NCBI RefSeq assembly: GCF_030684315.1
Contig: NC_081360.1
Location: 76,559,780 to 76,623,779, forward strand
Reading direction: 5' to 3'
DNA from: Stegostoma tigrinum
Taxonomy: Eukaryota
Length of the DNA: 64,000 nt
The translations under genes and the position numbers were made by a program. Shown here one piece after another: positions 21,180 to 62,319 of the stretch. Each line of letters opens with the position of its first letter. The first letter of the stretch is position 1. The notes under the pieces were generated by a model. The model was not told where the DNA came from. It saw only the letters and a list, made by a program, of their open reading frames with translations, and ran no database searches.

Positions 21180-24100
21180 TATTTCCATTATCTTGCCTTT
21201 TCTCTGCAACCCTGCAAATTGTTTCCGTTTAAAGAATCATCCAGTTTCTGCTTAATGACTCAATGGAATCTGCCTCACCACATTTTCAGACTCTAACTAC
21301 TAGCTGTGTGTAAAACATTATTCACCTCACATTTGCTTCATTTGCAAAATGCTTTAAAACTGTGCCCTTCTGTTTTTGATCTTTTTATGAGTAAGAATGC
21401 TCTTTCTATTGATTCTGTTCAGATTCTTCAAGATTATGAAAGTTTCTATCAAGCCTCTTAGCCTTCTCCTCTACAAGAAAATCAGTCCCAGTACTTCCAT
21501 TCTTTCCTTATAACTGAAGTGTTTTATCTTGGAGCCATCTGTATAGTGGCCTTTGCAACTCTCTCCAATGTAGTCACATTCTTTCTTGAGTGTGGTGCCC
21601 AGAACTGTACCCACTCCTGCACTTTTTCTGTGTCCCTATTTTTGAAGCCGAGAATAGTATTCAGTTAATTCACAGCTCTCTCAACATTTCCTGTCACTCT
21701 TCATAAATTATGCACATATACACCCAGGTAGCTTTGCTCCTGTACACTCTATTGAGAAGCATGCCTTAATTTATATTATTTCTTCACATTGTTTCTAAAA
21801 AAAAATGCTCACGACAGCAAATTTCCAGTATTTTTGAAGTTCCCCTCAGTTTACAATTCTCCCAAATTTTCAATCAGAAACATTGAAATTATCTTTTGCA
21901 CAGAAGATCAAGATAATTCATACATATAATCAGGAATGCCAAAGGTCCCAAGACTGACCTGGCAAAGTCCATTACAAACAATCTTCCAACCTGCAAAATG
22001 GCCATTAACCATTCTCTGTTTATTATGCTTCTCTTAACTTTACATTCATATTGCTACTTTCCATTTTATTCCATGATCTGTAACTTGAAGGATAGGTCTG
22101 TTGTGTGACATTACATTGAACTGTGACAGCCTCCTGGCTTCTAAAACAGAGATAGATTGCCAACTTGGTTAAACAGCAAGGGATGCTGGGTATATTGGCC
22201 AAGTGAAACTCTGGAAGTCACAAAATACTGTGCAAACATAGCAGCCAGGTGTTCATGATATTAGCATAATGTAAAAGGCAACATTTATTCTGCACAAAGA
22301 CTACCAACTTTTTATCTACCAGACAAACAGCAGACCAGAGAGAAAAGCACACGGTCTTGCTACACAAAGAAATTGACAGTAGCATGCTATCTAAATGGAG
22401 TCCAGACGAAGGGTGCAATCACGAAACATCAACATCCCTATTCCACTGATGCTGCATGGCCTGCTGCATTCCTCCAACTCCACACTGTACTGACTGCTGC
22501 CATCTAAATGATTGATTCGTGTTGCAAACTATTAAGGGTATCTCCCTGATTGGCCAGAACTATGGAAAGTTCCAGGAAACCATCTAAAAAGTATTAAGAC
22601 AAAATTTACCTGCAGACACCTCTCTTGGAACCCCTCTTAGAGTCATCTGTGGCCTTCTGAGACCAGCACAACAAGAGGCAGAGACCAGCTGACCAGTCAG
22701 AGAGAGAGGGAGAAAGCAGCTTTGCAGACCCAGAGTTTTAGCCACAGAGATGGTGACTGCATGAATTTAAAAGTGACTTGGGAAGTATTGTAATCTTCAG
22801 GGGACAACCAAATAGGATTATGGATCACATATTTATTATTAAAGGTTATTGTAATTTGCTTTCTAATGAAGTAGGAATATTTTACTTTAGGACCAGCTTG
22901 TGTTCATATTGATTTGACCACTTTGGCATTGTGGGACACCTGCACAAATTCATTCATAACATTCTAGTCAGAGTTGTCTGTAACTTATTTAAAGATTATC
23001 CTGACAATAGAATGATTTTTTGGAAATTCATGTGCACTACATCAATAGCCTTTCCCTAATCGACACTACGTTACCAGCAAGTCAGTCAGGCATGATATTC
23101 CCGAATGAGTCCACGCCAGCTCTTCTGAATCAATCAAACCTTTTTCTGTGTGGCTATTCCTTATATCCCAAATAATTGTATTTGAAGATCTCCTCCACAG
23201 AAGCTAAACTTCCTGGAATATAATTGTTGGCCTACCCTTACAACCTTTTTGAACTTGTCATAACATTTGCAATTCCCCAGTTCTCCAGGGCCAGTCCCAA
23301 ATCCAGAGAAGGTAGAAAGATAATTGTCAGTGCTTCTGCAATTTCCACACACACTCTTCAACATCCTTGGATGTATTCAACTCTAGCCCCTATGCATGAG
23401 CAACTTTAAGTACCAACATCTTATAGAATACCACATCTCTATCAATGTTTAACCTCTTCCATGGATTATGTTTCTTTCTGTCACCATGGCTTGGACAGCA
23501 TCTTCCTCACAGTTAAAGACTTATGTAAAGCATTCATTTAACACTTCAACCATGACTCATGCCTCTAAATATGAATTTTTTTTTGTTTTGGAACACCGCT
23601 CCTTTTATCATCCTTTTGCAATTGATACGCTCATAAAAGGAACTTTTGAAGTTTTCTACTATCTGCCAATGATCCTAATCCCTCTGCTTCACGTGCTTGC
23701 TTTTACACCTCTGCTCTGAATCTTCTGTATTCAGTTTGATTTCTCCATCATATTTACCATCTGATAAATATGTGGCTTGAGAGAAAAAAAACTGCAGGTG
23801 ATGGCATCCAAGGTAGACGAAAAGGAAGCATTCCTCTTGGCTTGCTATGTTCTTCCAGCCTCCTGTTTATCTACCACAATTATATGGCTTAATTGTTATC
23901 TCCTTTGTCATCCAAGAAGCTCTGGATTTATTTAGCTTAACTTTCCCTTTTCCAGGGATTTTGTTTTACAGCCAACCCATGGAGTTCCAGTCTCTCCAAC
24001 CCAGCTCTGTTCTTGCCTGTCTTAAGATGGCCCCCAACTGGTTCAGAAGTTTTCCTCTGTATTGATCAATGTCATTCTTCACTGTCATCCTAAATCATGA

Positions 24101-24210: not shown

Positions 24211-24675
24211 GGCTCAGTTTTTGCGTTTGAATCTTTGCTTATGTTTGAAATGAGTCTGTAATGAGGTCAAGAGCTGAGTGAACATGAGCGAACTTAAATG
24301 AAGCATTAGTGAGCAGGTTTGTGCTGAGGAAATGGTTTTGATCACAACTTTGATCACTTTGCTGATGATTTAGCGTAAGCTGGTGATGTGGTGATGAGTG
24401 GGGTTGGATTTATTCTATTCTTTGTAGACAAGACACAGCTGGGCAATTGTCAATTCATCTTGTTAGCTATTTTTAAAAAAGCACATATATGATGGAACAG
24501 AATAATAAAAGGCCATCTTATTGCAGAGGCAAGAATATCATATGACTGTATGCCACCTATCTTTGTTTCATATAATTTAGATACGTACGTACTGTGGCTT
24601 TACTGCAAGATGTCATCATATTGTATTTGTAGTGTTCCTGAGCACAAAGATAATTTGCACCATAATCTGCTGGAG

Positions 24676-25827
24676 GCAGTAAGGCATTTGATAAGGTTCC
24701 CCATGGTAAGCTCATTCAGAAGGTCAGGAGGAATGGGATACAGGGGAACTTAGCTGCTTGGATACAAAATTGGCTGGCCAACAGACGACAGCGAGTGGTA
24801 GTAGAAGGAAAATATTCTGCCTGGAAGTCAGTGGTGAGTGGGGTTCCACAGGGCTCTGTCCTTGGGCCTCTACTGTTTGTAATTTTTATTAATGACTTGG
24901 ATGAGGGGATTGAAGGATGGGTCAGCAAGTTTGCAGACAACACAAAGGTCGGAGGTGTCGTTGACAGTGTAGAGGGCTGTTGTAGGCTGCAGCGGGACAT
25001 TGACAGGATGCAGAGATGGGCTGAGAGGTGGCAGATGGAGTTCAACCTGGATAAATGCGAGGTGATGCATTTTGGAAGGTCGAATTTGAAAGCTGAGTAC
25101 AGGATTAAGGGTAGGATTCTTGGCAGCGTGGAGGAACGGGAGATCTTGGTGTGCAGATACATAGATCCCTTAAAATGGCCACCCAAGTGGACAGGGTTGT
25201 TAAGAAAGCATATGGTGTTTTGGCTTTCATTAACAAGGGGATTGAGTTTAAGAGTCATGAGATCTTGTTGCAGCTCTATAAAACTTTGGTTAGACCGCAC
25301 TTGGAATACTGCGTCCAGTTCTGGGCGCCCTATTATAGGAAAGATGTGGATGCTTTGGAAAGGGTTCAGAGGAGGTTTACCAGGATGCTGCCTGGACTGG
25401 AGGGCTTATCTTATGAAGAGAGGTTGACTGAGCTCGGTCTCTTTTCATTGGAGAAAAGGAGGAGGAGAGGGGACCTAATTGAGGTATACAAGATAATGAG
25501 AGGCATAGATAGAGTTGATAGCCAGAGACTATTTCCCAGGGCAGAAATGGTTAGCACGAGGGGTCATAGTTTTAAGCTGGTTGGTGGAAAGTATAGAGGG
25601 GATGTCAGAGGCAGGTTCTTTACGCAGAGAATTGTGAGAGCATGGAATGCGTTGCCAGCAGCAGTTGTGGAAGCAAGTTCATTGGGGTCATTTAAGAGAC
25701 TGCTGGACATGTATATGGTCACAGAAATTTGAGGGTGCATACATGATGATCAATGGTCGGCACAACATTGTGGGCTGAAGGGCCTGTTCTGTGCTGTACT
25801 GTTCTATGTTCTATGTTCTATGTTCTA
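24676..25827 (+). mobile_element. Young 5'-truncated CR1-clade LINE (RT C-terminal part and 3' end)
   Basis: ORFs 24795-25427 and 25151-25732 give SGVPQGSVLGPLLFVIFINDLD..SKFADNTK..WQMEFNLDKC and LYKTLVRPHLEYC..FFTQRIVRAWNALP with one frameshift near 25140. Ends in a (GTTCTAT)n tail. Confidence 0.95.
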
Positions 25828-26663: not shown

Positions 26664-26841
26664 ATAAACAGGAGGCTGGAAGAACATAGCAAGCCAGGAG
26701 GAATGCTTCCTTTTTGTCTACCTTGGATGCCATCACCTGCAGTTTTTTTTGTCTCAAGCCACATATTTACCAGATGGTAAATATGATGGAGAACTCAAAC
26801 TGAATACAGAAGATTCAGAGCAGAGGTGTAAAAGCAAACAC
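26664..26841. repeat. Arm 2 of a 178-bp local inverted duplication (partner 23693-23870)
   Basis: Reverse-complement match with about 6 substitutions by manual comparison. Confidence 0.9.
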
Positions 26842-34941: not shown

Positions 34942-35000
34942 CAGTGATAATGGGAACTGCAGATGCTGGAGAATCCAAGATAATAAAATGTGAGGCTGGA
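34942..35000 (-). mobile_element. ~60-bp Penelope-like terminal fragment
   Basis: Reverse complement of the element 3' end. Flanked by tgaaaatgatt at 34931-34941 and 35001-35011. Confidence 0.8.
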
Positions 35001-35098
35001 TGAAAATGATTAGATTCTTTTATTTTATAATGTCAGACATGACCTGGAATGCCTTGACCAGATTTGCAAACAAGTCTCCGCCTCATTATGAACAATGA

Positions 35099-35282
35099 GG
35101 TCCGCCTCCCCCTCTGTCCCTATTTATTCCAGTTGTCTCTCCCCATCCCCCTCTCTGATGAAGGGTCTAGGCCCGAAATGTCAGCTTTTGTGCTCCTGAG
35201 ATGCTGCTTGGCCTGCTGTGTTCATCCAGCTCCACACTTTGTTATCTTGGATTCTCCAGCATCTGCAGTTCCCATTATCACT
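35099..35282 (+). mobile_element. Penelope-like (Neptune) terminal fragment with hammerhead motif at 35155-35182
   Basis: Near-identical to about 61229-61410. Contains CTGATGA-aGGGTCtaGGCCC-GAAA-tGTC. Confidence 0.9.
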
Positions 35283-36012
35283 AAGTTACTGATACTGTAT
35301 GGGCCACATGGTCATTCAGCATCTTGGGTAGAAGCAAGGTTCAAATTTGATGAACAGTAAATATGTTTATTACATACTAGTTAATGGCTATATACACTAC
35401 ATGTAAGATACAAGATAATTTAATTTGGGACATTAGGCTAAAGTAAGTGCTAAGGTCACACTATAACTGGTAACACATTCTCTCAGAGTACTCTCAACAA
35501 GAACAAAACTTGAAGCAACACTCATTCAGACAGAAACCAGCAACCGGTTAACTCTTCCTGGGAGCAGTCCTTTATTTCCCGATGGGCAGACTCATCTTGC
35601 AATGTCAGTTAATGCTTTTGTCCTAACTATCTTTAACAAGACATTGGAGTTTTATTTTCCCCAGAGCAACAACAGATATTATTAGTAAACGGGCTATTTT
35701 TCTGCAAATTTCACTCAAGGTTTGTAGGAAATTGAGCCTGCAATTTTGTCATTCATTCAAACTTTGGGACATAGTCTAAATCATAAAAATATCATTGCAG
35801 CTTTCAAGAAAATCTTAAGAAATTAGTGCACAAAAACTAGTGTCTTTGAGTATTAATCACTATCAAAATGTGCAGCTATTTTAACATTACAAATATCCTC
35901 AAATCTTTTACAACTAAACAGATTCTCATTTAGCAGGCACATATTTTGAAATACAAAGACTTTCTAGTCATAATTTTCCACTTTTTTTTCCTTCCTGTTA
36001 TAAATAACTTAC

Positions 36013-36132
36013 TGCAATTTGATTCATCAGAGCCATCTGCACAGTCATGGTCCTTGTCACAGACCCATTCTTCAGGAATGCAACGTTTGGTTACAGCACA
36101 CTGGAACTGGTTTGGAGAACAGGTAACTTCAG
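36013..36132 (-). CDS. LRP1B: LRP1/LRP1B-family coding exon: LDL-receptor class A repeat
   Basis: Acceptor ttgtccttag|CT and donor TGC A|gtaagt. 120 nt, phase 1 to 1. (P)[39 protein letters not shown]. Confidence 0.93.
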
Positions 36133-37119
36133 CTAAGGACAAAGTTTTAAAATAATCTGTCAGATGTTACAAGTGACATTAAATGTCAAAACTTCCACCA
36201 TGGCAACATTCAAGTTATACTTGACTCCTGAACATATTTTTGAATCAAATTTTCATCCTTTTGAAATGGCTTAGCTTCGTACTTAAAATTGTGGTTGTTA
36301 CCTACCACTTTGAAAATGTTTAAATAATAGTTCACAAAATCACTATCGAAATTGCAGTCTTGCAGTTCTGAATGATGATGTTCAAATTAAATTCATAAAT
36401 ATACATACAAATTGTCCAAATTAGTTTTGCATTTTGAACCTTTTTTTTCACCAACTCATCTGACTCATTCAATTGATTAGTATCTGTCATAGTTTCTATT
36501 TTATGCTTGTATGTGCAAAATTTTGATGTATTAAATTCGATCACACATTAAGGTATTAACTGAACTGAAGAAACCATATTCTTCTGCTTTTCTTTTGAAC
36601 CACGCATAGCTGAATAACTTGCCGCACAGCTATTATCCTGATTTTCGATCTTAAAATCATTAAATGAATTTTCACTTCCATAATCTGTAAAGTAACAACC
36701 TTCATGAAGTGTATTAAAATTTCTGCAATTTTATTTGTGCCGATTCATACTTTATCTGACAAGTAATTTCTGTTGCACTTTAATGGATAAGCTACCAATT
36801 AACATCTATCAATCTCACTACATGTTATAACTGTAAAATTACGCAGAAAATTGAATTAATCCTTTGCATAATGCTATTACAATAGGTGAATAAAAAAGTA
36901 GCAATCTAGTTATGAATGATTAAATGTGTTGCCAGCAGATAATACGGATGAATTCAACTTTTTTGTTAAATAAATGCATTTTTTTCTTTCAAACTATGAA
37001 CTTTGGCTAAGATTGCATCAAATGGCATTGAGATCCATTGCTCCATCCACTTGATTAAGGATATATAATTCCTTTTTAAAACATCCAGAAAGCAGGCCTG
37101 ATCTTGGGAAACGAGCAGA

Positions 37120-37316
37120 GATAATGGGAACTGCAGATGCTGGAGAATCTGAGATAACAAAGTGTGGAGCTGGAGGAACAGAGCAGGCCAAGCAGCATCT
37201 CAGGAGCGCAAAAGCTGATGTTTCGGGCCTAACGGTCTCGGCCTGAAACGTCAGCTTTTGTGCTCCTAAGATGCTGCTTGGCCTGCCGTGTTCCTCCAGC
37301 TTCACACTTTGTTGTG
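37120..37316. mobile_element. Palindromic Penelope-derived mini-insertion: two terminal fragments joined back-to-back at hammerhead stem II
   Basis: The left arm is the reverse complement of the right arm around 37230-37240. 16-bp TSD ttgggaaa(c/t)gagcaga at 37104-37119 and 37317-37332. Confidence 0.85.
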
Positions 37317-37799
37317 TTGGGAAATGAGCAGATTTCTTTTACTGCGAAGTGCTGCTAAAAAATAAATTGACAAAACCATTATGAAGTAGAATTCACCAAG
37401 AAGTAATTCTACTGAAGTTGTAATCTTCCTTCTATTTCTTCCGTAGAAAGTGGCAAGTATATTGAGATATTATTTCCTCATTTTTTGTTAATTCAGTAAT
37501 TCTGAAAGTGGTAATACTTGATGGGGTGACACTTCTTTCTCCCCCAGTGTGATGATAGCATGTGACAGAAAGTGGAATTTCTTGAGAACAAGAATAGGCC
37601 ATGCATCTCTTTGAGTTTGCACGTCTATTCATTAAAATCATGGCTGTTCCGATGATAACCTCAACTCTACACTCCTCGTGGTAAGGTCATCCTAATAGTT
37701 TTTGTAGTAACGTAGAGTGTATTCTTAAAATGCATCACGTTTATTCTGAGACTCCCCTCATTAGATGAGAAGAACACTCGTATATCATTTGACTACAGT

Positions 37800-39900: not shown

Positions 39901-40189
39901 CATTTCATTAAAATTTGGTCGAGATTAAGCAACATATCCCAATTTATTGAAGGGTAAAGATGCTTAAAAACCAAATACAGCATCAGACTCAAGGAATGTG
40001 CTAAATGCATATGCCTTTACACGTCAAAATGCCACATCCTTTAATGAAACAATTTGAGAACTGCCTTGCAGCGATGACAGGGGGGATCTTATTTCTGTAG
40101 CTGTGAAACCAACAGTGTAGCATTTAAGATAATAAAATGTGAGGCTGGATGAACACAGCAGGCCAAGCAGCATCTCAGGAGCACAAAAG

Positions 40190-40221
40190 CTGACGTTTCG
40201 GGCCTAGACTCTTCATCAGAG
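40190..40221 (-). ncRNA. Minimal hammerhead ribozyme motif (Neptune PLE), sense to the host pre-mRNA
   Basis: Minus strand ct-CTGATGA-aGAGTCtaGGCCC-GAAAC-GTC-ag. Full core, one stem II mismatch, and only a 2-bp stem I. Confidence 0.7.
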
Positions 40222-40443
40222 AGGGGGATGGGGGGAGGGAACTGGAATAAATAGGGAGAGAGGGGGAGGCGGACCGAAGATGGAGAGTAAAGAAGATAGG
40301 TGGAGAGAGTGTAGGTGGGGAGGTAGGGAGGGGATAGGTCAGTCCAGGGAAGACAGACAGGTCAAGGAGGTGGGATGAGGTTAGTAGGGAGCTGGGGGTG
40401 CGGCTTTGGGTGGGAGGAAGGGATGGGTGAGAGGAAGAACCGG

Positions 40444-41400
40444 TTAGGGAGGTAGAGACAGGTTGGACTGGTTTTGGGATGCAGTGGGTGGGGGGGAAGA
40501 GCTGGGCTGGTTGTGTGGTGCAGTGGGGGGAGGGGATGAACTGGGCTGGTTTAGGGATGCAGTAGGGGAAGGGGAGATTTTGAAACTGGTGAAGTCCACA
40601 TTGATACCATATGGATGCAGGGTTCCCAGGCGGAATATGAGTTGCTGTTCCTGCAACCTTCGGGTGGCATCATTGTGGCAGTGCAGGAGGCCCATGATGG
40701 ACATGTCATCAAGAGAATGGGAGGGGGAGTGGAAATGGTTTGCAACTGGGAGGTGCAGTTCTTTGTTGCGAACTGAGCGGAGGTGTTCTGCAAAGCGGTC
40801 CCCAAGCCTCCGCTTGGTTTCCCCAATGTAGAGGAAGCCGCACCGGGTACAGTGGATGCAGTATACCACATTGGCAGATGTGCAGGTGAACCTCTGCTTA
40901 ATGTGGAATGTCATCTTGGGGCCTGGGATGGGGGTGAGGGAGGAGGTGTGGGGACAAGTGTAGCATTTCCTGCGGTTGCAGGGGAAGGTGCCGGGTGTGG
41001 TGGGGTTGGAGGGCAGTGTGGAGCGAACAAGGGAGTCACGGAGAGAGTGGTCTCTCCGGAAAGCAGACAGGGGAGGGGATGGAAAAATGTCTTGGGTGGT
41101 GGGGTCGGATTGTAAATGGCGGAAGTGTCGGAGGATAAAGCGTTGTATCCGGAGGTTGGTAGGGTGGTGTGTGAGAACGAGGGGGATCCTCTTGGGGCGG
41201 TTGTGGCGGGGGCGGGGTGTGAGGGATGTGTCGCGGGAAATGCGGGAGACGCGGTCAAGGGCGTTCTCGATCACCGTGGGGGGAAAGTTGCGGTCCTTAA
41301 AGAACTTGGACATCTGGGATGTGCGGGAGTGGAATGTCTTTTCGTGGGAGCAGATGCTATAATTTTTGTGCACATAGACTGTCATGTAAGCAAATCTCAT
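40444..41400 (-). CDS. Chimeric 318-aa ORF: ~15 aa from captured DNA fused to the PLE RT C-terminus, Zn-linker and GIY-YIG endonuclease
   Basis: Open frame from the ATG at 41400 (MRFAYMTVYVHKNYS|ICSHEKTF...). No evidence of expression. Confidence 0.4.
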   Translation of the reverse strand: MRFAYMTVYVHKNYSICSHEKTFHSRTSQMSKFFKDRNFPPTVIENALDRVSRISRDTSLTPRPRHNRPKRIPLVLTHHPTNLRIQRFILRHFRHLQSDPTTQDIFPSPPLSAFRRDHSLRDSLVRSTLPSNPTTPGTFPCNRRKCYTCPHTSSLTPIPGPKMTFHIKQRFTCTSANVVYCIHCTRCGFLYIGETKRRLGDRFAEHLRSVRNKELHLPVANHFHSPSHSLDDMSIMGLLHCHNDATRRLQEQQLIFRLGTLHPYGINVDFTSFKISPSPTASLNQPSSSPPPTAPHNQPSSSPPPTASQNQSNLSLPP

Positions 41401-41742
41401 GTGACAAATTTGGAATCTTTGAATTCTTAGAGACTTTTGTGTACGTTCCTTCTCGTTGAAAGAGAAACTTCAAAAAGATCTGTTTTGATGGCCACTTTCA
41501 GGCCAAAAATGTAATGTGAATATCTTCAGAGACCAACGTAACTGAAAGAGCGTCTTTCTCAATCACTGTGTACTATGTTTCTGTAACACAATGCTTCTGA
41601 TGAGTGATGAGTTAGCTTGTGACACCCTTTTGGCTGCTCCTGGAAATCTACTGCTCTGAAATTAGTAGCTAAAGATTTTGATGCTATTATCATTAGAAAT
41701 TGAGGATTATAATCTGTCTTCTGAAAAGCATTCGCATAATGA
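41357..41742. repeat. 386-bp inverted copy of 42837-43222
   Basis: No mismatch found on manual reverse-complement comparison. Confidence 0.95.
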
Positions 41743-42004
41743 CGTCAGCTTTTGTGCTCCTGAGATGCTGCTTGGCCTGCTGTGTTCATCCAGCCTCACA
41801 TTTTATTATCTTGGAATCTCCAGCATCTGCAGTTCCCATTATCAGTGTAGCATTTAAGGCTGGGTTACTGTTTTCAAGCCTGATCATACAATCCAAATTT
41901 GTTTTCAATCAAACGGCCCAAGGTGTTAGAGAAATATACATTTGGTGAGAGTGTAGCTGAACTATCCAAGTGAAACAAAGCTCGAGGCAAATAATGGATT
42001 TTTT

Positions 42005-42325
42005 TTTGAATTTGTAGGATGAGGGCATCACTGGCTAGGCTAGCATTTATTGCACAGTGGGCTGTCAAGAGCCAACCATGTTGCTGTGCTTCTAGAGTGA
42101 CTTATAAATCCGACCAGATAAGAAAGGAAGTTTCCTTCCCTCAAGAACATTAGTGAACCAGATAGGTTTTCCTGACAGTTGACAAAGGTTTCATTGCCAT
42201 CATAAGATCCTTAATTCCAAATTTTTATTAACTTTAGATTTCACTGTCAGCCATGGTGGGTACCATTCTGGGTTACTAGAATGGGTTACCTGGGTCTCTG
42301 GATTTGTAGGCTAGTGAAAATACCA
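42005..42325 (-). mobile_element. Decayed SINE with L2-like tail (SacSINE1/DeuSINE-like)
   Basis: gggcatcactggctaggctagcatttattgc...aacattagtgaaccagatagg...ctgggtctctggatt. Reverse-orientation homologue of 58.4-58.75 kb. Confidence 0.55.
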
Positions 42326-42449
42326 TGAGGATTAATGGATTCTGCCAAATACTGCTGGATGAACATTCAAGATTTTGGAAGCACATTTACAATTTTTTTG
42401 GAAGGTGTCATTTTAGTAGATTAGCATTTGCAATCACCTCTGCTCCAAA

Positions 42450-44080
42450 GATTTTACAATTAACTATGATCAACATTTATCAAAGACTTCATGCTAAGTC
42501 ACATGGATGACATAGAGTTCCGTTGGACAACGGAGAAATGACATAGAGTATGCTTGATGTTTAGGAACATTTATGAGAAAATGGCCTCATGCTTAATGAA
42601 AACTGTAAATTCTCCAAAGAAATTATTCTTTTTTGTTTGGACACATTGTCAGTATTGAAGACATATGGGCTGATCCTCAGAAGGCTAAAACCATTACAGA
42701 GTTCCACAGTCCAAAGTCAAGTTGAGGATATTCAAAGGTTCTTGTTTATGGTAAATCAGGTGAAGAAATATTTTTGCCTAAGCAGGCTATCATTACAGAA
42801 CACTTGAGACAAATCACAAGGTGGGGATTTGAATACTCATTATGCGAATGCTTTTCAGAAGACAGATTATAATCCTCAATTTCTAATGATAATAGCATCA
42901 AAATCTTTAGCTACTAATTTCAGAGCAGTAGATTTCCAGGAGCAGCCAAAAGGGTGTCACAAGCTAACTCATCACTCATCAGAAGCATTGTGTTACAGAA
43001 ACATAGTACACAGTGATTGAGAAAGACGCTCTTTCAGTTACGTTGGTCTCTGAAGATATTCACATTACATTTTTGGCCTGAAAGTGGCCATCAAAACAGA
43101 TCTTTTTGAAGTTTCTCTTTCAACGAGAAGGAACGTACACAAAAGTCTCTAAGAATTCAAAGATTCCAAATTTGTCACATGAGATTTGCTTACATGACAG
43201 TCTATGTGCACAAAAATTATAGATGACGGCAGATGTGCCCTCAAGAGTGACAGGTAACAACTGAATGAATTATGATGTGATTTCATTCACAGAAATATAA
43301 GAATACGCTTGGTGCATGGCAGAACAAGGGCCAGCAAGTCACAATTGAATCAAATAGATTCAATGAGAACAAAATAGATTCATAATGTCTCAACATTTTC
43401 CAATGTTGCACTGATTGTTTAGCCATTTCAAAGACCCACAACATAGTCATGAAACTGCATTTACCATTGTTGATGACTTACTGACATATGATAAATGATG
43501 GGTCAGGGCAAATTTACTTTCAGAGCATTTCTCAGCAAAGCTGCACCAAAAGCATTTGGTTGTCACCAAGAGGCCCAGGATCTCTACAGGCATTGAGGAA
43601 CTCATTACAGATAGTGAGGCATGTGATGTCCACAGGCCAGAACAAATAGAACTCATTATATCTATCAAGTTTCCAAACAGACCTTGGGAATACTTGGGAA
43701 TATTCCAAATAGACCTTGGGGTAGTTTTGTTTTTATATTTCATGTAAAGTCTTATATTATCCTCATTTAGTATTTCACCTCAGGGGTCAAGGAGTAGAAA
43801 TCGCCAGTTTTGGATTTGAACATGTTCAAAATTCACTGCAATACCCATAATTTAACAGCGAGGTAGAAAGTGGGATGAGAACAATTAAGTTGCTCTTGAA
43901 GAAATCTTACTCCTACAGAGGAATGTGACTTATTTGTCTGCCTTATTTCAACGTGATCTTACGTAATCAGAGTTACTAATGTTCAGAACACAAAGACTCA
44001 GTTCCCTATTGTGCCTAAGAAATTAGCTCTGCACTTATGCCATCATTACCAAGCAGTAGATGATAAAAAAACCAAAAAAC
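42450..44080 (+). mobile_element. Decayed Ty3/Gypsy LTR-retrotransposon pol (RT end, RNase H, integrase)
   Basis: Remnants QRFLFMVN (RT end), EKDALSV...KTD (RNase H), EELITDSEACDVHRPEQ..PNRPWEYLG..DL (integrase zinc finger and core start) and a P..N.E.E...RTIKLLLKK-like motif. Confidence 0.65.
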
Positions 44081-45065: not shown

Positions 45066-46791
45066 TTAAAGTTTCTGTTTTTGGAGAATGATCCTATCAT
45101 GTTCATCAGACAGAACATTATAATAAACATTACTGCATGAGTTAGGGAACAGCGCACCTGACGGTGATCAGGTATTTAAATAGAAAAGGTACAATTGCCC
45201 AAAAAGATGCCAATTTATACTGTTAAAAAGGTTGCACAAAAAAAACAGGAACTTCAACTTTTATCCCGTTCTGATTGAGCCATCCTCAGATTATTGCTTG
45301 GAATGAACCAAATGGTAAACCTGACAACAGAGGAGCACCTTGGACATTAGGTTGTTTACACAATTTTCCAAGGCAATTATATTCTACCCAATAACTATCT
45401 TTCTTCCAAATCCAAAGAGAACATATTCAGGAAAGACAGTTAAGCATCCAGATAATCTAAATTTCTAAAATCAAAGATTTTGAGACAGATGGGTTGTGGC
45501 ATATATAATTATATAAACAAATAGAAATGATAATTACCATAATAAAGCTTGGGGTTGATGTTGCTTTTGATTCTGAAACAGTTAATACTTGTTTAACTGC
45601 AATAAGTACCATCCACCATGATAATGTCATAAACACTTAATGGGAGACAGGTCTAAAACGATGTCTTCCCAACAAACTCTAGAGTCATAGGGGTCTACAG
45701 AATGGAAAAGGGCCCTCCAACTCAACAGGTTTGTGTTGGTAAAAGGAAAACAAACATCTAACAATTTCAATCTTTTAATATTCCTATTTTCCAGCAGTCT
45801 GAATGTTGAAGATACTTCCATAGTGCTAGCAGTGAAGATCCCATGGAAATAAACTGTTTACTTCATGCTCCCAAGCTCATTGTTTCTTCACCCCAGTCAT
45901 TAATTTTCACCTCATATAGCTCTGTACCACCTGAAGTGGTTAAAATAGAAAACTATAAACTTTAGATAGGCCTGGGTAATTTCAGTTTAAATATGCTATT
46001 CCTTGAAGCATTAAACATTCTCTGCACCCACTCTTGTCTTTGTAGACCATCTTATAAAACTCATCCTTTCACTATTTTGTAACTTGAGTTCTCTATCGTG
46101 CTGCTACTTTTCCCTTTATCCAACAATTTCAACAGGATCATTGCATTGCCTGGAGTCTATTAAAATCTGCACATAATTGCAGAGATGCAATAAGCATTAT
46201 TTTGTTTTTCAAGGCTTTTTGTGTTAGATCAGAAGGTGGTTACCTTCACCCAAACTAGGCCATGCAAGTCCCTTAAGAACCCGTACACTGAGAGCTAGCA
46301 GCATAGGCAATGCATATCCCTTCCAAACAGCCATTCTTTCTACAAGCCCAGGGAATGCGTTGACAGAATATCAATGGAGGAAGATCTCCAGCCAAGTCTA
46401 ATGGTATACTCTGCTGGTATTAATACCTTCTAACCACATCAAGTGTGAACATCTTGGGTCATGAAACCTTTTTGCAACTCAGAGTTACAAGCTAGGGTTT
46501 TGTGCTTTTGCCTTTGTGATTTTCAGAAAATTTAAGTGTATGTTTGGAAAAAGTATGGATTAGAATGAGCAGGCATAGAAAACCATAGCCACTGAATCCA
46601 GTGAAGCAGTCTAATCTTGACAGAAATGCCAACTGTCAGGAGGAACAAGAACTGAACTTAGGACATCATTCATGATATTACTTAGTACCAAACTAAATGG
46701 CTTTTTATAACTGATTCACTGGGAGCTCACTGACTAGAATACATTCATATGCAAACTACATTAGCTTCAAAAGATGAATGTTAAAACTCAC

Positions 46792-46911
46792 GGCAATCAC
46801 TTTCGTCTTCTCCATCACCGCAGTTGTCTTGACCATTACATCTGAAGATGATTGGAATGCACCGTTTCTTCTGTGAACACTTAAACTGACTTGGGAGGCA
46901 AACATGTGTCT
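46792..46911 (-). CDS. LRP1B: LRP1/LRP1B-family coding exon: LDL-receptor class A repeat
   Basis: Acceptor attctttag|AG and donor TGC C|gtgagt. 120 nt, phase 1 to 1. (E)[39 protein letters not shown]. Follows a 113-nt intron. Confidence 0.93.
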
Positions 46912-47024
46912 CTAAAGAATTATGAATAAACACATTGTGGTCAATGTTCAAAACTGACCTCATACAAATGGCATCTAAATATTTTCTCAGTATAAAGTTG
47001 AACAATTTTAATGCAAATACTTAC

Positions 47025-53870: not shown

Positions 53871-54052
53871 GTTTAATACCTCATTATTCATGTATTAAAT
53901 CAGGCAGAAGAAAACATGCTGTCATTTACTTTTTACTGTCAAAATACTTCAGTCTACACATTGGTTTCTATCTTTCCCTTTTGAATACTCTCCCTCTCCA
54001 GGAGCAAAACCTGTTCTGGAGAAAAATCAAGGTCTTAAAGACAAACTTCTAT

Positions 54053-56262
54053 CAGAGATAACACAGTGTAGAGCTGGAGAAACACACAGGCCAGGCAGGA
54101 TCAGAAGGACCAGAAAGTTGACGCTTTGGGTTGAGACCCTTCTTCAGAAAGGGGGAGGGGGGGGCAAGGGAGCTGGGAAATAACTGGATAGAGGGGGGGG
54201 AGGCGAGGCTGGGACAAATAGGTGGGATGGTAACAGGTGACTGCAGGGAGGGTGTGGTGGGGATTGGTCAGAGGGATGGATGAGGCGGATTGGTGGGAGA
54301 GAAGGTGGACAGATTGTGCCAGGGCAAGGAGGCGGGGATGACAGGGTGTGTTGGAAATATGATGAGGCTGTGGGCGGGAGATTTTAAAACTGGTTTCCAT
54401 ACTTAGGCCATCGGGCTACAGGTTCCCGAGGGGGAATAAGAGGTGTTGTTCCTCCAGTTTTTGGGTGGTGTCAATGTGACACTGCTGGGGTCTCAGGGTG
54501 GACATGTCACCTAGGGAGTGGGAGTTAAAATGGTTGGCAACTGGAAGGTGTTGTCGTTTGTCATGTACAGAGCACAGATGCGCTATGAAGCGGTCTCCAA
54601 GTCTACGCTTGGTCTCACAGATGTAGAGTAGGCTATATCGAGGGAACAGCAGATAGAGTAGACCAAGCTGACAGTTGTGCAGGTGAACCCCTGTCTGATA
54701 TGAAAGGTTTGTTTTGGGCCTTGAATGGAGGTGAGGGTGGGAGGCGTTAGGGCAAGTACAGCATTTCCTGCAGTCGCAGGGAAAGGTGCCTGGGGTTGTG
54801 GGGTTAGTGGGGAGTGCGGAGTGGACGAGGGAGTTATGGAGACAGCAGTCCCTTTGAAAGGCAGATGGGGTGGGGAGGGAAATTAGTCTTTGGTTGTGGG
54901 GTCAGATTGTAGGTGGGAGAGAATGATATGCTGCATGCGGATGTGGGAGGGATGACATGTGAGGAGAAGGGGGAACTCTGTCTTTATTTTTGTTGGGGGA
55001 GGGTTTGTGAGGGCAGAAGTGTGGGAAATGCAAGAGATGCGGTCGAGGGCATTTTTGATCACTGTAGCCTGGGAAGGAGTTATAGTTCTTGAAATTGGAG
55101 GACATCTGGGATGTTCAGGAGTGGAACACCCCACCTTGGGACAGATGTGGTGGAGGCGGAGGAATTGGGAGTATGGGATCACATTCTTGCAGGACGGTTT
55201 TTTTAAGATTAGATTTCCGACAGTGTGGAAACAGGTCCTTCAGCCCAATAAGTCCACACCACCCCTTACAGCATCCCACACAACCCTGAACACTATGGGC
55301 AATTTAGCGTGGTCGATCCACCTAGCCTGCACATCTTTGGACTGTGGGTGGAAACCGGAGCACCCAGAGGAAACCCATGCAGACACGGGGAGAATGTGCA
55401 AACTCCGCACAGACAGTTACCCGAGGCTAGAATCAAACCCAGGCCCCTGGTGCTGTGAGCTAACCACTGAGCCACCGCGCCACCCAAGGTAGTGAGAGGA
55501 AGTGAAGCCCATGTAGCTGTGGGAGTCGGTGAGCTTGAAATAGATGTCAGTTTTGAGGCAGTCGCCAGAGATGGAGATGGAGAGGCCCAGGAAGGTGAGG
55601 GAGGTATTGGAGTTGGTCCAGGTGAAATTGAGGTTGGGATGAAAGGTGTCAGTAAAGTTGATGAACTGTTCAAGCTCCTCATGGGAGCATGAGCAGCATC
55701 AATACAATAATGTTGCAGAGGAAGAGGTGTGGGATAGTGCCAGTATACAGTGGAAAAGGGACTATTCCACATATCCTACAAAGAGGCAGGCATAACTTGG
55801 GTCCATGCTGGTGCCCATGGCCACCCTGTTCGTCTGTGGGAAGTGGGAGGAGTTAAAGGAGAAGTTATTCAGGGTAAGGACAAGTTCTGTTAAGGGAAGT
55901 CACCAGTTTTTAAATCTTCCCACCCAAGGCCTCATTCCATTTCCAACCCTCCCTCTCATCTCCGCCTTTTGACCTGACACAGCTTGTCCATTTTCTCTCC
56001 CACCTATGCACCTCACCCATCCAACTGACCAATCCCCACCCTGCACTCACCTATCACCATCCCACCCACCTTCCTCAGCCCCACCCCTCCTCTCTATTTA
56101 TTTTGCAGCTCCCTTCCCTCCGCTTGTCCCCATTTGTGAAGAAGGGTCCCAACCCGAAACGTCAACTACCCTATTCCTCTGATGCTGTTGGGCCTGCTGT
56201 GTTCCTCCAGCTCCACAGTGTATTGCCTCTGACTCCAGTATCTGCAGTTGTTGCTATCTCCT
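54053..56262. mobile_element. Older Neptune-type Penelope-like insertion: minus-strand body (about 54053-55895) and plus-strand 3' arm (about 55899-56262)
   Basis: Minus-strand IPYSQFLRLHHIC and RT/GIY-YIG remnants colinear with the 40-kb copy. Degenerate hammerheads at 54120-54147 (-) and 56136-56163 (+). Confidence 0.85.
55198..55485 (-). mobile_element. HE1-like SINE nested in the Penelope-like element
   Basis: Reverse complement of the SINE at 52215. PLE sequence resumes on both sides. Confidence 0.88.
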
Positions 56263-60125: not shown

Positions 60126-61408
60126 ATTACCAATTCCTCCGCCGCATCTGCTCCCACAATAAGACATTCCACTCCCGCACATCCCAGATGTCCAAGTTCT
60201 TCAAGGACCGCAACTTTCCCCCCACGGTGATCGAGAACGCCCTTGACCGCGTCTCCCATATTTCCCGCAACACATCCCTCAAACCCCGCCCGCCCCCGCC
60301 ACAACTGCCCAAAGAGGATCCCCCTCGTTCTCACACACCACCCTACCAACCTCCGGATACAACGCATCATCCTCCGACACTTCCGCCATTTACAATCCAA
60401 CCCCACCACCCAAGACATTTTTCCATCCCCACCCCTGTCTGCTTTCCGTAGAGACCACTCTCTCCGTGACTCCCTTGTTCGCTCCACACTGCCCTCCAAC
60501 CCCACCACACCCGGCACCTTCCCCTGCAACCGCAGGAAATGCTACACTTGCCCCCACACCTCCTCCCTCACCCCTATCCCAGGCCCCAAGATGACATTCC
60601 ACATTAAGCAGAGGTTCACCTGCACATCTGCCAATGTGGTATACTGCATCCACTGTACCCGGTGTGGCTTCCTCTACATTGGGAAAACCAAGCGGAGGCT
60701 TGGAGACCGCTTTGCAGAACACCTCCGCTCAGTTCGCAACAAACAACTGCACCTCCCAGTCACAAACCAATTCCACTCCCCCTCCCATTCTCTTGATAAC
60801 ATGTCCGTCATGGGCCTCCTGCAGTGCCACAATGATGCCACCCGAAGGTTGCAGGAACAGCAACTCATATTCCGCCTGGGAACCCTGCAGCCTAATGGTG
60901 TCAATGTGGACTTCACCAGTTTCAAAATCTCCCCTTCCCCTACTGCATCCCTAAACCAGCCCAGTTCGTCCCCTCCCCCCACTGCACCACACAACCAGCC
61001 CAGCTCTTCCCCCCCACCCACTGCATCCCAAAACCAGTCCAACTGTCTCTGCCTCCCTAACCGGTTCTTCCCCTCACCCATCCCTTCCTCCCACCCCAAG
61101 CCGCACCCCCATCTACCTACTAACCTCATCCCACCTCCTTGACCTGTCCGTCTTCCCTGGACTGACCTATCCCCTCCCTACCTCCCCACCTATACTCTCT
61201 CCACCTATCTTCTTTTCTCTCCATCTTCGGTCCGCCGCCCCCTCTCTCCCTATTTATTCCAGTTCCCTCTCCCCATCCCCCTCCCTGATGAAGGGTCTAG
61301 GCCCAAAACGTCAGCTTTTGTGCTCCTGAGATGCTGCTTGGCCTGCTGTGTTCATCCAGCCTCACATTTTATTATCTTGGAATTCTCCAGCATCTGCAAT
61401 TCCCATTA
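60126..61408 (+). mobile_element. Young 5'-truncated Neptune-type Penelope-like element
   Basis: 15-bp TSD tctccatatctacct at 60111-60125 and 61409-61423. GIY-YIG ORF (VVYCIHCTRCGFLYIGKTKRRLGDRFAEH) with a frameshift near 60290. Hammerhead motif at 61285-61312 with GAAA changed to AAAA. Confidence 0.95.
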
Positions 61409-62319
61409 TCTCCATATCTACCTTGTCTATTCCTGCCTGAATTTTATGTTTCAATTAAATCACCTCTTAAACTTCTAAACTTCAGGAGATATAAATCTAG
61501 CTTTTCCAATTGCTCTTCAAGTAATTGAGTGAATTTTCTCTGAACTGTCTTCACTTGCCTCTCCTTAACTTAATTTGCCAACTGACTTTACCCAGCTCTA
61601 TTTCATGATTTCATTATTGCCCTTATTTACATGTTCAAAAATGAGACTCAGACCTACTCCTCTCTCCCTCAACCTGAACATAAAATGCGATCATATTGAG
61701 GTCGTTGCTACCCAGGGCTGCTTCATCACGAGATCATTAATCTTATCTTTTTGTAGGATAGTTGGTCTAGAGTAGGCTGATCGCTGGTTAGTACCATAAT
61801 ATGCTGTTCTAAGAAACTGTCCAAAAAACATACTATGAACTCCGTATCTCAGCTGCCTTTGAGCATTTCACTTTACAATACTGAAAGTAGCTTAAAATTC
61901 TCCAGATCATTGCCATGTCTGTCTGACCAGTTTTCCAGTTCTTCCTTTATTCCACACCCGATTGTATGGTTACTGTTAGAATGTCCTGGGTAGAACTATC
62001 CTGAAATAGTCAATCATATGCTGCGAGCCCAGTAAGACTGCAGAGTTGTAAACGGTGGATTTGTTTTTGTAGGTCTCAAAATGACAAATCAGCAGTTTGG
62101 CTGGACTGGCAAGTAACCCATGAACAAAATATGGTGAGTCATCTCAAATGGAATTCTCTTGGAAAATAATCATTTTAACAAGGCAATCAAAATCCAACAC
62201 ACAGCTCATTTTAAATTTCTTATTATTGCTCTCATTTCCTGAGCTTCACCACATCACCATTCAAAGTAAAACTTGAAATGAATAGAATGTAACAGCAGAA
62301 TACTTAAAAATGCATAATC

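Follow-up and report, generated by a model that had tools for sequence, protein, structure and literature searches.

In a 64,000-nt stretch of the Stegostoma tigrinum genome (NC_081360.1, positions 76,559,780 to 76,623,779 of the forward strand; hereafter the window), a young Penelope-like element (PLE) was inserted into an intron in a single event. Between the two arms of this insertion lies a 386-bp filler, an exact inverted copy of sequence found 978 bp downstream. We consider it likely that the neighbouring DNA strand served as template for these 386 bp in that same integration, and that they join two cDNAs primed from the two target nicks. The product of the event at this locus is a dead scar without function. 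Positions below are those of the window.

Structure of the insertion and origin of the filler

The insertion is bounded by a 16-bp target-site duplication (TSD) at 40113-40128 and 41843-41858 (both plus strand), the two copies being identical at 16 of 16 positions. Between them lie, in order, an inverted left arm of 1229 nt (40129-41357, minus strand), the filler (41357-41742, minus strand) and a forward right arm of 102 nt that includes the element tail (41742-41843, plus strand). Both arms were assigned by sequence match to genomic copies. The left arm (40126/9-41357), which is 5'-truncated, is 96% identical to an element copy at 60144-61378, and the right arm (41742-41843) is 98% identical to 61308-61410; the closest genomic copies of the left arm reach 98.6%. 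An inverted repeat common to both arms matches at 71/71 positions. Relative to the end reached by the right arm, the left arm starts ~32 nt further in, leaving a single 32-nt tail. The filler is the reverse complement of the donor at 42837-43222 (plus strand), which lies inside an old low-copy repeat relic. The match is 386/386 and extends beyond neither side, and each inner junction has one shared base.

A preliminary description of the window had reported a single insertion, a perfect 16-bp TSD, an apparently exact 386-bp inverted copy and 1-nt microhomology at both junctions. All of these hold, the single insertion being borne out by the TSD pair together with an empty site in a relative. 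The three parts that it distinguished (inverted body, capture and 3' end) are present as sequence; as a special architecture they do not stand, since the insertion has the ordinary two-arm form of its family plus a filler.

A DNA search of the 3.2-Gb genome with the captured segment returned five candidates, all of which were scored: two were exact, the donor and the capture, and three were partial matches at 68–75%. Because the genome holds only these two exact copies, the filler is a local copy and not a dispersed part of the element family. Thus, a dispersed chimeric family is ruled out, as is a second insertion of the donor relic, whose other copies are only 68–75% identical. This agrees with the earlier argument for local templating over a second Gypsy insertion, and it answers the question, raised at the same time, whether the segment recurs in many family copies. 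The locus contains non-element sequence within a TSD that copies unique nearby DNA whose source is intact, as expected of a local templated insertion. The empty site that had been proposed as a check was found in a relative species (organism B), where 40112 is joined directly to 41843 with one TSD copy, in one contig from each of two runs of two studies. Over 412 nt of the intron, organism B shows 22 changes, a divergence of ~5%.

The junctions were examined in short-read contigs from four runs of organism A (X1–X4), which come from one study, may represent the assembled animal, and form contig sets that drop some records. Both outer junctions were spanned, the right TSD by contig 41822-42045 in X1 and X2. 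The right inner junction was bridged by a 54-bp contig (41713-41766) in three of the four runs, at depths near that of the flank (22.1 in X1, 8.2 in X3 and 11.4 in X4); this contig reaches 29 letters to one side of the junction and 24 to the other, short of the 31-letter threshold for junction support, and was not among the contigs listed for X2. For the left inner junction (41356/41357), no bridging contig was among those listed in any of the four runs, and support comes from depth. The X1 donor contig has a depth of 29.2, compared with 27.7–30.7 expected if 386 bp are doubled; in X3 and X4, where depth implies duplications of 735 and 162 bp, the noise is too great for sizing. The structure, for which long reads were first suggested as a check, is thus backed by short-read contigs at the outer junctions and at the right inner junction, and by depth only at the left inner junction.

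These data confirm that the structure is real. An assembly artefact at the left junction is highly improbable. It would account for the missing bridging contigs in 4/4 runs and for a donor contig that is unbroken at 43222, but the former point is weakened by the records dropped from the contig sets. Additionally, a contig of its own represents the right junction at single-copy depth in 3/4 runs, the donor contig breaks exactly at 42837, the depth in X1 agrees with a doubling of 386 bp, contigs cross the two outer junctions and the relative has the empty site.

In order to place this structure within its family, we surveyed 475 arms (≥85% identity, with the terminal end) in 172 sequences totalling 1.91 Mb, with 8 overlapping loci removed; 1.16 Mb of this is the window, its flanks and arbitrary blocks, and the rest consists of loci picked by junction pattern or likeness to the left arm. 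The neighbour of an arm was an inverted arm in 306 instances, a TSD in 53, a direct piece in 48 and unresolved in 68. Family arms, too, are offset, one ending ~32 nt short of the other, which is the known tail. The 155 two-arm joins comprise 70 with microhomology, 17 blunt joins, 49 with 1–7 extra bases and 19 with 8–60 extra bases, several of the last being element-derived; one-base microhomology is the commonest join class (21/155). Both junctions of the present locus are therefore ordinary for the family, and the length of the filler alone is unusual. The two inverted arms are best understood as a pair of cDNAs, one primed at each target nick, because the PLE protein of Anolis cuts both strands and extends them, its two start sites lying at the borders of the tail (PMC11167929); in vitro, this protein does not need hammerhead cleavage (PMC11167929). 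Two further joins deserve mention. L160 (G000:C19:26049328-26052395) is a perfect two-arm palindrome with 0 differences in 1354 nt, either a very recent insertion or a homogenised one. L125 (5025-5069) carries a 45-nt non-element filler between two arms, which has no second exact copy in the assembly and no local source longer than 9 nt.

Template of the filler

Followed from the end of the right-arm cDNA, the filler begins at the near end of the donor (42837) and proceeds along the plus strand, leading away from the site; its template would therefore have been minus-sense. Two molecules fit such a template, the DNA strand continuous with the right-arm cDNA and the host pre-mRNA, and the locus alone does not discriminate between them. 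We prefer DNA because the sister events are DNA-level, the arm end is not at a template end, and snap-back is documented for R2 and L1.

The observed TSD and empty site suggest that the endonuclease cut the two strands 16 nt apart. Each 3' end would then prime reverse transcription, one 32 nt inside the other, yielding arms of 1229 and 102 nt; this two-end priming is modelled on the Anolis enzyme (PMC11167929). The 3' end of the right arm may next have turned back onto the strand it belongs to, which resection or displacement had laid bare, at a point 978 nt beyond the TSD, and have been extended there by 386 nt away from the site. The new end would then release and join the left cDNA through one shared base, a junction that is observed, although the order of these steps is presumed. 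An equal product would arise if the left cDNA invaded the other (plus) strand, and the copying polymerase could be a host enzyme or the PLE reverse transcriptase (RT).

Long local copies beside an arm junction were present in three insertions of the sample, the present locus and two others, and in no further survey loci. This frequency, ~1% of insertions, is a lower bound, many loci extending only 1.5 kb. In the insertion at G000:C5:20045794-20046739 (L191, from a random block), ~70 bp of flank, the TSD and the second arm are inverted, with a 320-bp inverted duplication (97%). Here the second cDNA turned back onto the strand it belongs to, ~70 nt beyond the TSD, which requires a DNA hairpin, resolved by cleavage; the event matches the L1 fold-back mechanism of PMC11702581 Fig. 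S9. At L025:1410-2203 (G000:C22 near 63185000) the TSD occurs three times, and 335 bp of right arm, TSD and flank are repeated at 100% between the arms. Either synthesis overshot on the DNA strand here, or a second insertion took place, whose TSD would be long (232 bp). Neither of these independent long events needs host RNA. Other candidates for local copies were rejected: L120 and B14 proved on inspection to be separate insertions, a block at window+248 kb is an old inverted repeat, and L150 and B1/B12/B15 are element-derived.

Several observations support copying from DNA. The side on which the donor lies and its inverted orientation fit a fold-back of the right cDNA, the one-base join belongs to the commonest join class, and both the same fold-back geometry of the G000:C5 insertion and the exact 335-bp copy at L025, which has no need of host RNA, count for this route. 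Additionally, the right arm does not end at a template end (2/154 arms end in that interval), whereas an end-to-end RT jump would favour one. Other points weigh against it. Host pre-mRNA has the same sense as the proposed DNA template, fold-back needs ~1.4 kb of exposed strand, and the fold-back homology is only 1 nt if perfect (3/4 with a bulge). For L1, the templated insertions in the literature are mostly shorter than 250 bp and lie no more than 15 bp from the site. The independent long events number only two, of which L025 may be a second insertion. Lastly, the 473 duplicated bases of the locus show 0 differences, yet the left arm has 4–8 private changes; 4 strictly to 8 nearly private changes per 1229 nt predict 2.5–5 differences between capture and donor, compared with 0 seen (Poisson P 0.08–0.007). 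This last argument is softened by L160, whose arms show 0/1354 differences yet share 3 private changes, indicating that some private changes come from unsampled source elements.

The preliminary description had identified the captured piece as the sense sequence of the host pre-mRNA and proposed that the RT switched onto this transcript. The sense is correct, but the choice of template is not specific, since the minus DNA strand gives the same product. It is unlikely, in our assessment, that after making the 102-nt arm the RT moved to the nascent LRP-family pre-mRNA of the minus strand, ~1 kb away, and copied 386 nt of it before the product was linked to the left cDNA. Host exons lie on the minus strand on both sides, so that the intron RNA has the right sense, but that orientation has a 50% prior and is equally predicted by DNA fold-back. 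One L1 case of co-inserted vicinal pre-mRNA is known (PMC10191854), and tandem arrays starting at the hammerhead cut suggest that the RT can jump between RNA templates; in contrast, the present arm ends beyond the cut site, away from the common stops, and neither independent long event requires host RNA. The copy also contains no splice junction that would mark RNA, the donor being wholly intronic with 0 differences. As a general proposition, it is doubtful that a Penelope-like RT switches in cis onto nascent host pre-mRNA and writes local intron RNA into the genome. If true, host sequence could be captured repeatedly with its introns retained, and thousands of fossil junctions in the genome would record it.

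We regard it as quite improbable that a two-arm insertion came first and that a later break at its hairpin-prone centre was repaired by templated insertion, or that gene conversion erased the differences between copy and donor. A break at a pair of inverted arms is plausible, and later repair or conversion would explain the 0 differences in 386 bp where 2.5–5 are expected from the private changes of the arm. However, the TSD (16/16) and the arm repeat (71/71) are likewise unchanged, both junctions resemble ordinary arm ends of the family, and L160 demonstrates that source-derived private changes exist. No filler-less allele was seen in two samples, which may be one individual. Copying from the neighbouring DNA strand during integration is the reading that we prefer.

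Element, hammerhead motif and host gene

The left arm contains the end of the RT thumb region, a C-x4-C-x2-C linker, a GIY-YIG domain, the 3' region and a hammerhead motif. The GIY-YIG match (Pfam, E 9e-4) is below the Pfam cut-off, and the linker lies just before it in the frame 40444-41355. A CX2-5CxxC zinc-finger-like linker between RT and endonuclease (EN) marks the Neptune and Nematis clades (PMC8557442). EN-containing (EN+) PLEs are expected to have an RT followed, at the C-terminal end, by a GIY-YIG endonuclease in one open reading frame; a neighbouring 98%-identical copy, L038, has RVT_1 (E 6e-5) followed by GIY-YIG (E 2e-3) in one 698-aa frame, both below curated cut-offs, and the present copy retains the GIY-YIG part. 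The inverted or tandem pseudo-long terminal repeats (pLTRs), the 30–40 bp tail and the TSD of such elements are also represented, by a 32-nt offset and a 16-bp TSD. Sequence features thus support a Neptune-type PLE, and the linker and GIY-YIG agree with the earlier assignment to Neptune.

A motif scan placed a minimal hammerhead core in the left arm at 40194-40219 (minus strand); a minimal hammerhead family is described in PMC4209133. An Rfam scan of 38–46 kb gave 0 hits, and the fold of the hammerhead monomer (z 0.96) is not stable and is uninformative. The right arm starts 4–5 nt 5' of the predicted hammerhead cut (41746/41747), and because it includes these nucleotides from beyond the cut, its template would have been uncut at the predicted site. 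In an unselected set of 154 arm ends, 38 fall just upstream of the core and 12 at the cut (5 of them in one array), compared with 2 in the 4-nt interval used at the present locus, one of which is the present right arm. The nearness of the switch point to the cut is therefore not evidence for an RT jump: the 4–5 nt distance given in the preliminary description stands, and the mechanistic link drawn from it does not, as the arm passes the cut and only 2/154 arms end there.

Genome-wide, 478 matches were found for arms starting exactly at the predicted cut and 33 for arms starting 4 nt upstream, although the two patterns are unequal, that at -102 being 4 nt longer and including a CpG. A downstream control at position -94 (466 matches) is inflated, about half of its 100 listed matches being, by eye, 1-nt deletions in a T run. 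The pile-up at the cut site is thus a step relative to upstream positions and not a sharp spike. The clustering of arm 5' ends upstream of the core and at the predicted cut hints that the predicted ribozyme may cut in vivo in this family. Short units of the element are also found in tandem arrays (L075/L076, L126, L138, L146 and ~93.5 kb left of the window), several of which start exactly at the predicted cut. These suggest serial template jumps or possibly a circular, retrozyme-like RNA template.

The insertion site lies in an intron of a giant LRP-family gene transcribed from right to left, because all eight minus-strand frames tested match LDL-receptor A, EGF or LDL-receptor B repeats (Pfam). 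The nearest detected host exon frames, both minus-strand LDL-receptor class A repeats (PF00057), are at 35933-36166 downstream (E 7e-15) and 46784-47020 upstream (E 3e-10). These Pfam matches on both sides are in accord with the minus-strand host gene described previously. PDB relatives of the neighbouring exons are LRP2/LRP4/LDLR, paralogues only; the gene itself we take to be LRP1/LRP1B. The donor relic matched no Pfam retroelement family in 16 window segments or in four homologue segments, and by motif likeness it is presumably a decayed Gypsy pol. Of the earlier statements about the donor, its position outside the TSD and its age as a relic hold, while the label of decayed Gypsy pol found no Pfam match (0/16, 0/4).

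The same gene contains further copies of this or older PLEs (34946-35004, 35099-35282, 37116-37320, 60136-61410 and 54052-56249), of which 37116-37320 is a miniature two-arm PLE hairpin. Elsewhere in the window, a 178-bp inverted repeat (23693-23870 and 26664-26841, 96.6%, 2.8 kb apart) flanks a LINE-like RT fragment at 24666-25732.

Related events in other retroelements

L1 insertions resemble the present locus in several respects (PMC11702581, PMC10191854, bioRxiv 10.1101/2024.08.27.596794): they are TSD-bounded with a nearby genomic copy at the cDNA-end junction, have twin-primed inverted arms with little or no microhomology, and have had both DNA and pre-mRNA templates proposed for them. 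Fold-back with an inverted duplication is depicted in PMC11702581 Fig. S9, and the events of PMC10191854 include four fold-backs and one pre-mRNA case. Unlike L1, the element studied here is a GIY-YIG Penelope-like element that lacks poly-A and whose arms both begin at the element end and overlap. Its donor, 978 bp away and 386 bp long, also differs from the L1 tumour set, where copies are mostly <250 bp and within 15 bp. In R2, the 3' end of the cDNA snaps back and primes synthesis on the cDNA or on nearby genomic DNA, including rDNA, before the 5' junction is joined (PMC11371274); those are engineered single-cDNA insertions in human rDNA, whereas the present locus is a germline two-cDNA event.

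EN+ PLEs share with this locus an inverted 5'-truncated copy, a tail at one end only, a TSD and a hammerhead motif (PMC8557442, PMC11167929, PMC3846280), and their 30–40 bp tail compares with 32 nt here. In Adineta, captured host DNA is enclosed by Pen1 and by solo pLTRs (PMC3846280). In the excerpted account, what was captured there consists of spacers or of genes brought in from elsewhere in trans, and no local donor is mapped, whereas the present filler has an exact local inverted donor and lies between two arms, an arrangement not described there. Our literature search turned up no PLE for which exact local capture is reported, and supplements of bioRxiv preprints may hold closer L1 cases. 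The earlier remark that no such capture in cis was known for PLEs agrees with that search, although like by-products are published for L1 and R2. The event class is already known from those elements and is not a new kind of element.

How Penelope-like elements complete integration, with second-strand synthesis and joining, is not worked out (PMC11167929). If a single RNA had primed itself before integrating, a filler between two inverted arms within one TSD would be hard to account for. Such a filler points instead to two target-anchored cDNAs that are joined at the site and whose free 3' ends are able to copy neighbouring sequence. With ~1% of sampled insertions carrying such copies, the genome-wide total would be hundreds, which could settle whether the template is DNA or RNA. 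The present locus is one clean data point on how PLEs finish integration.

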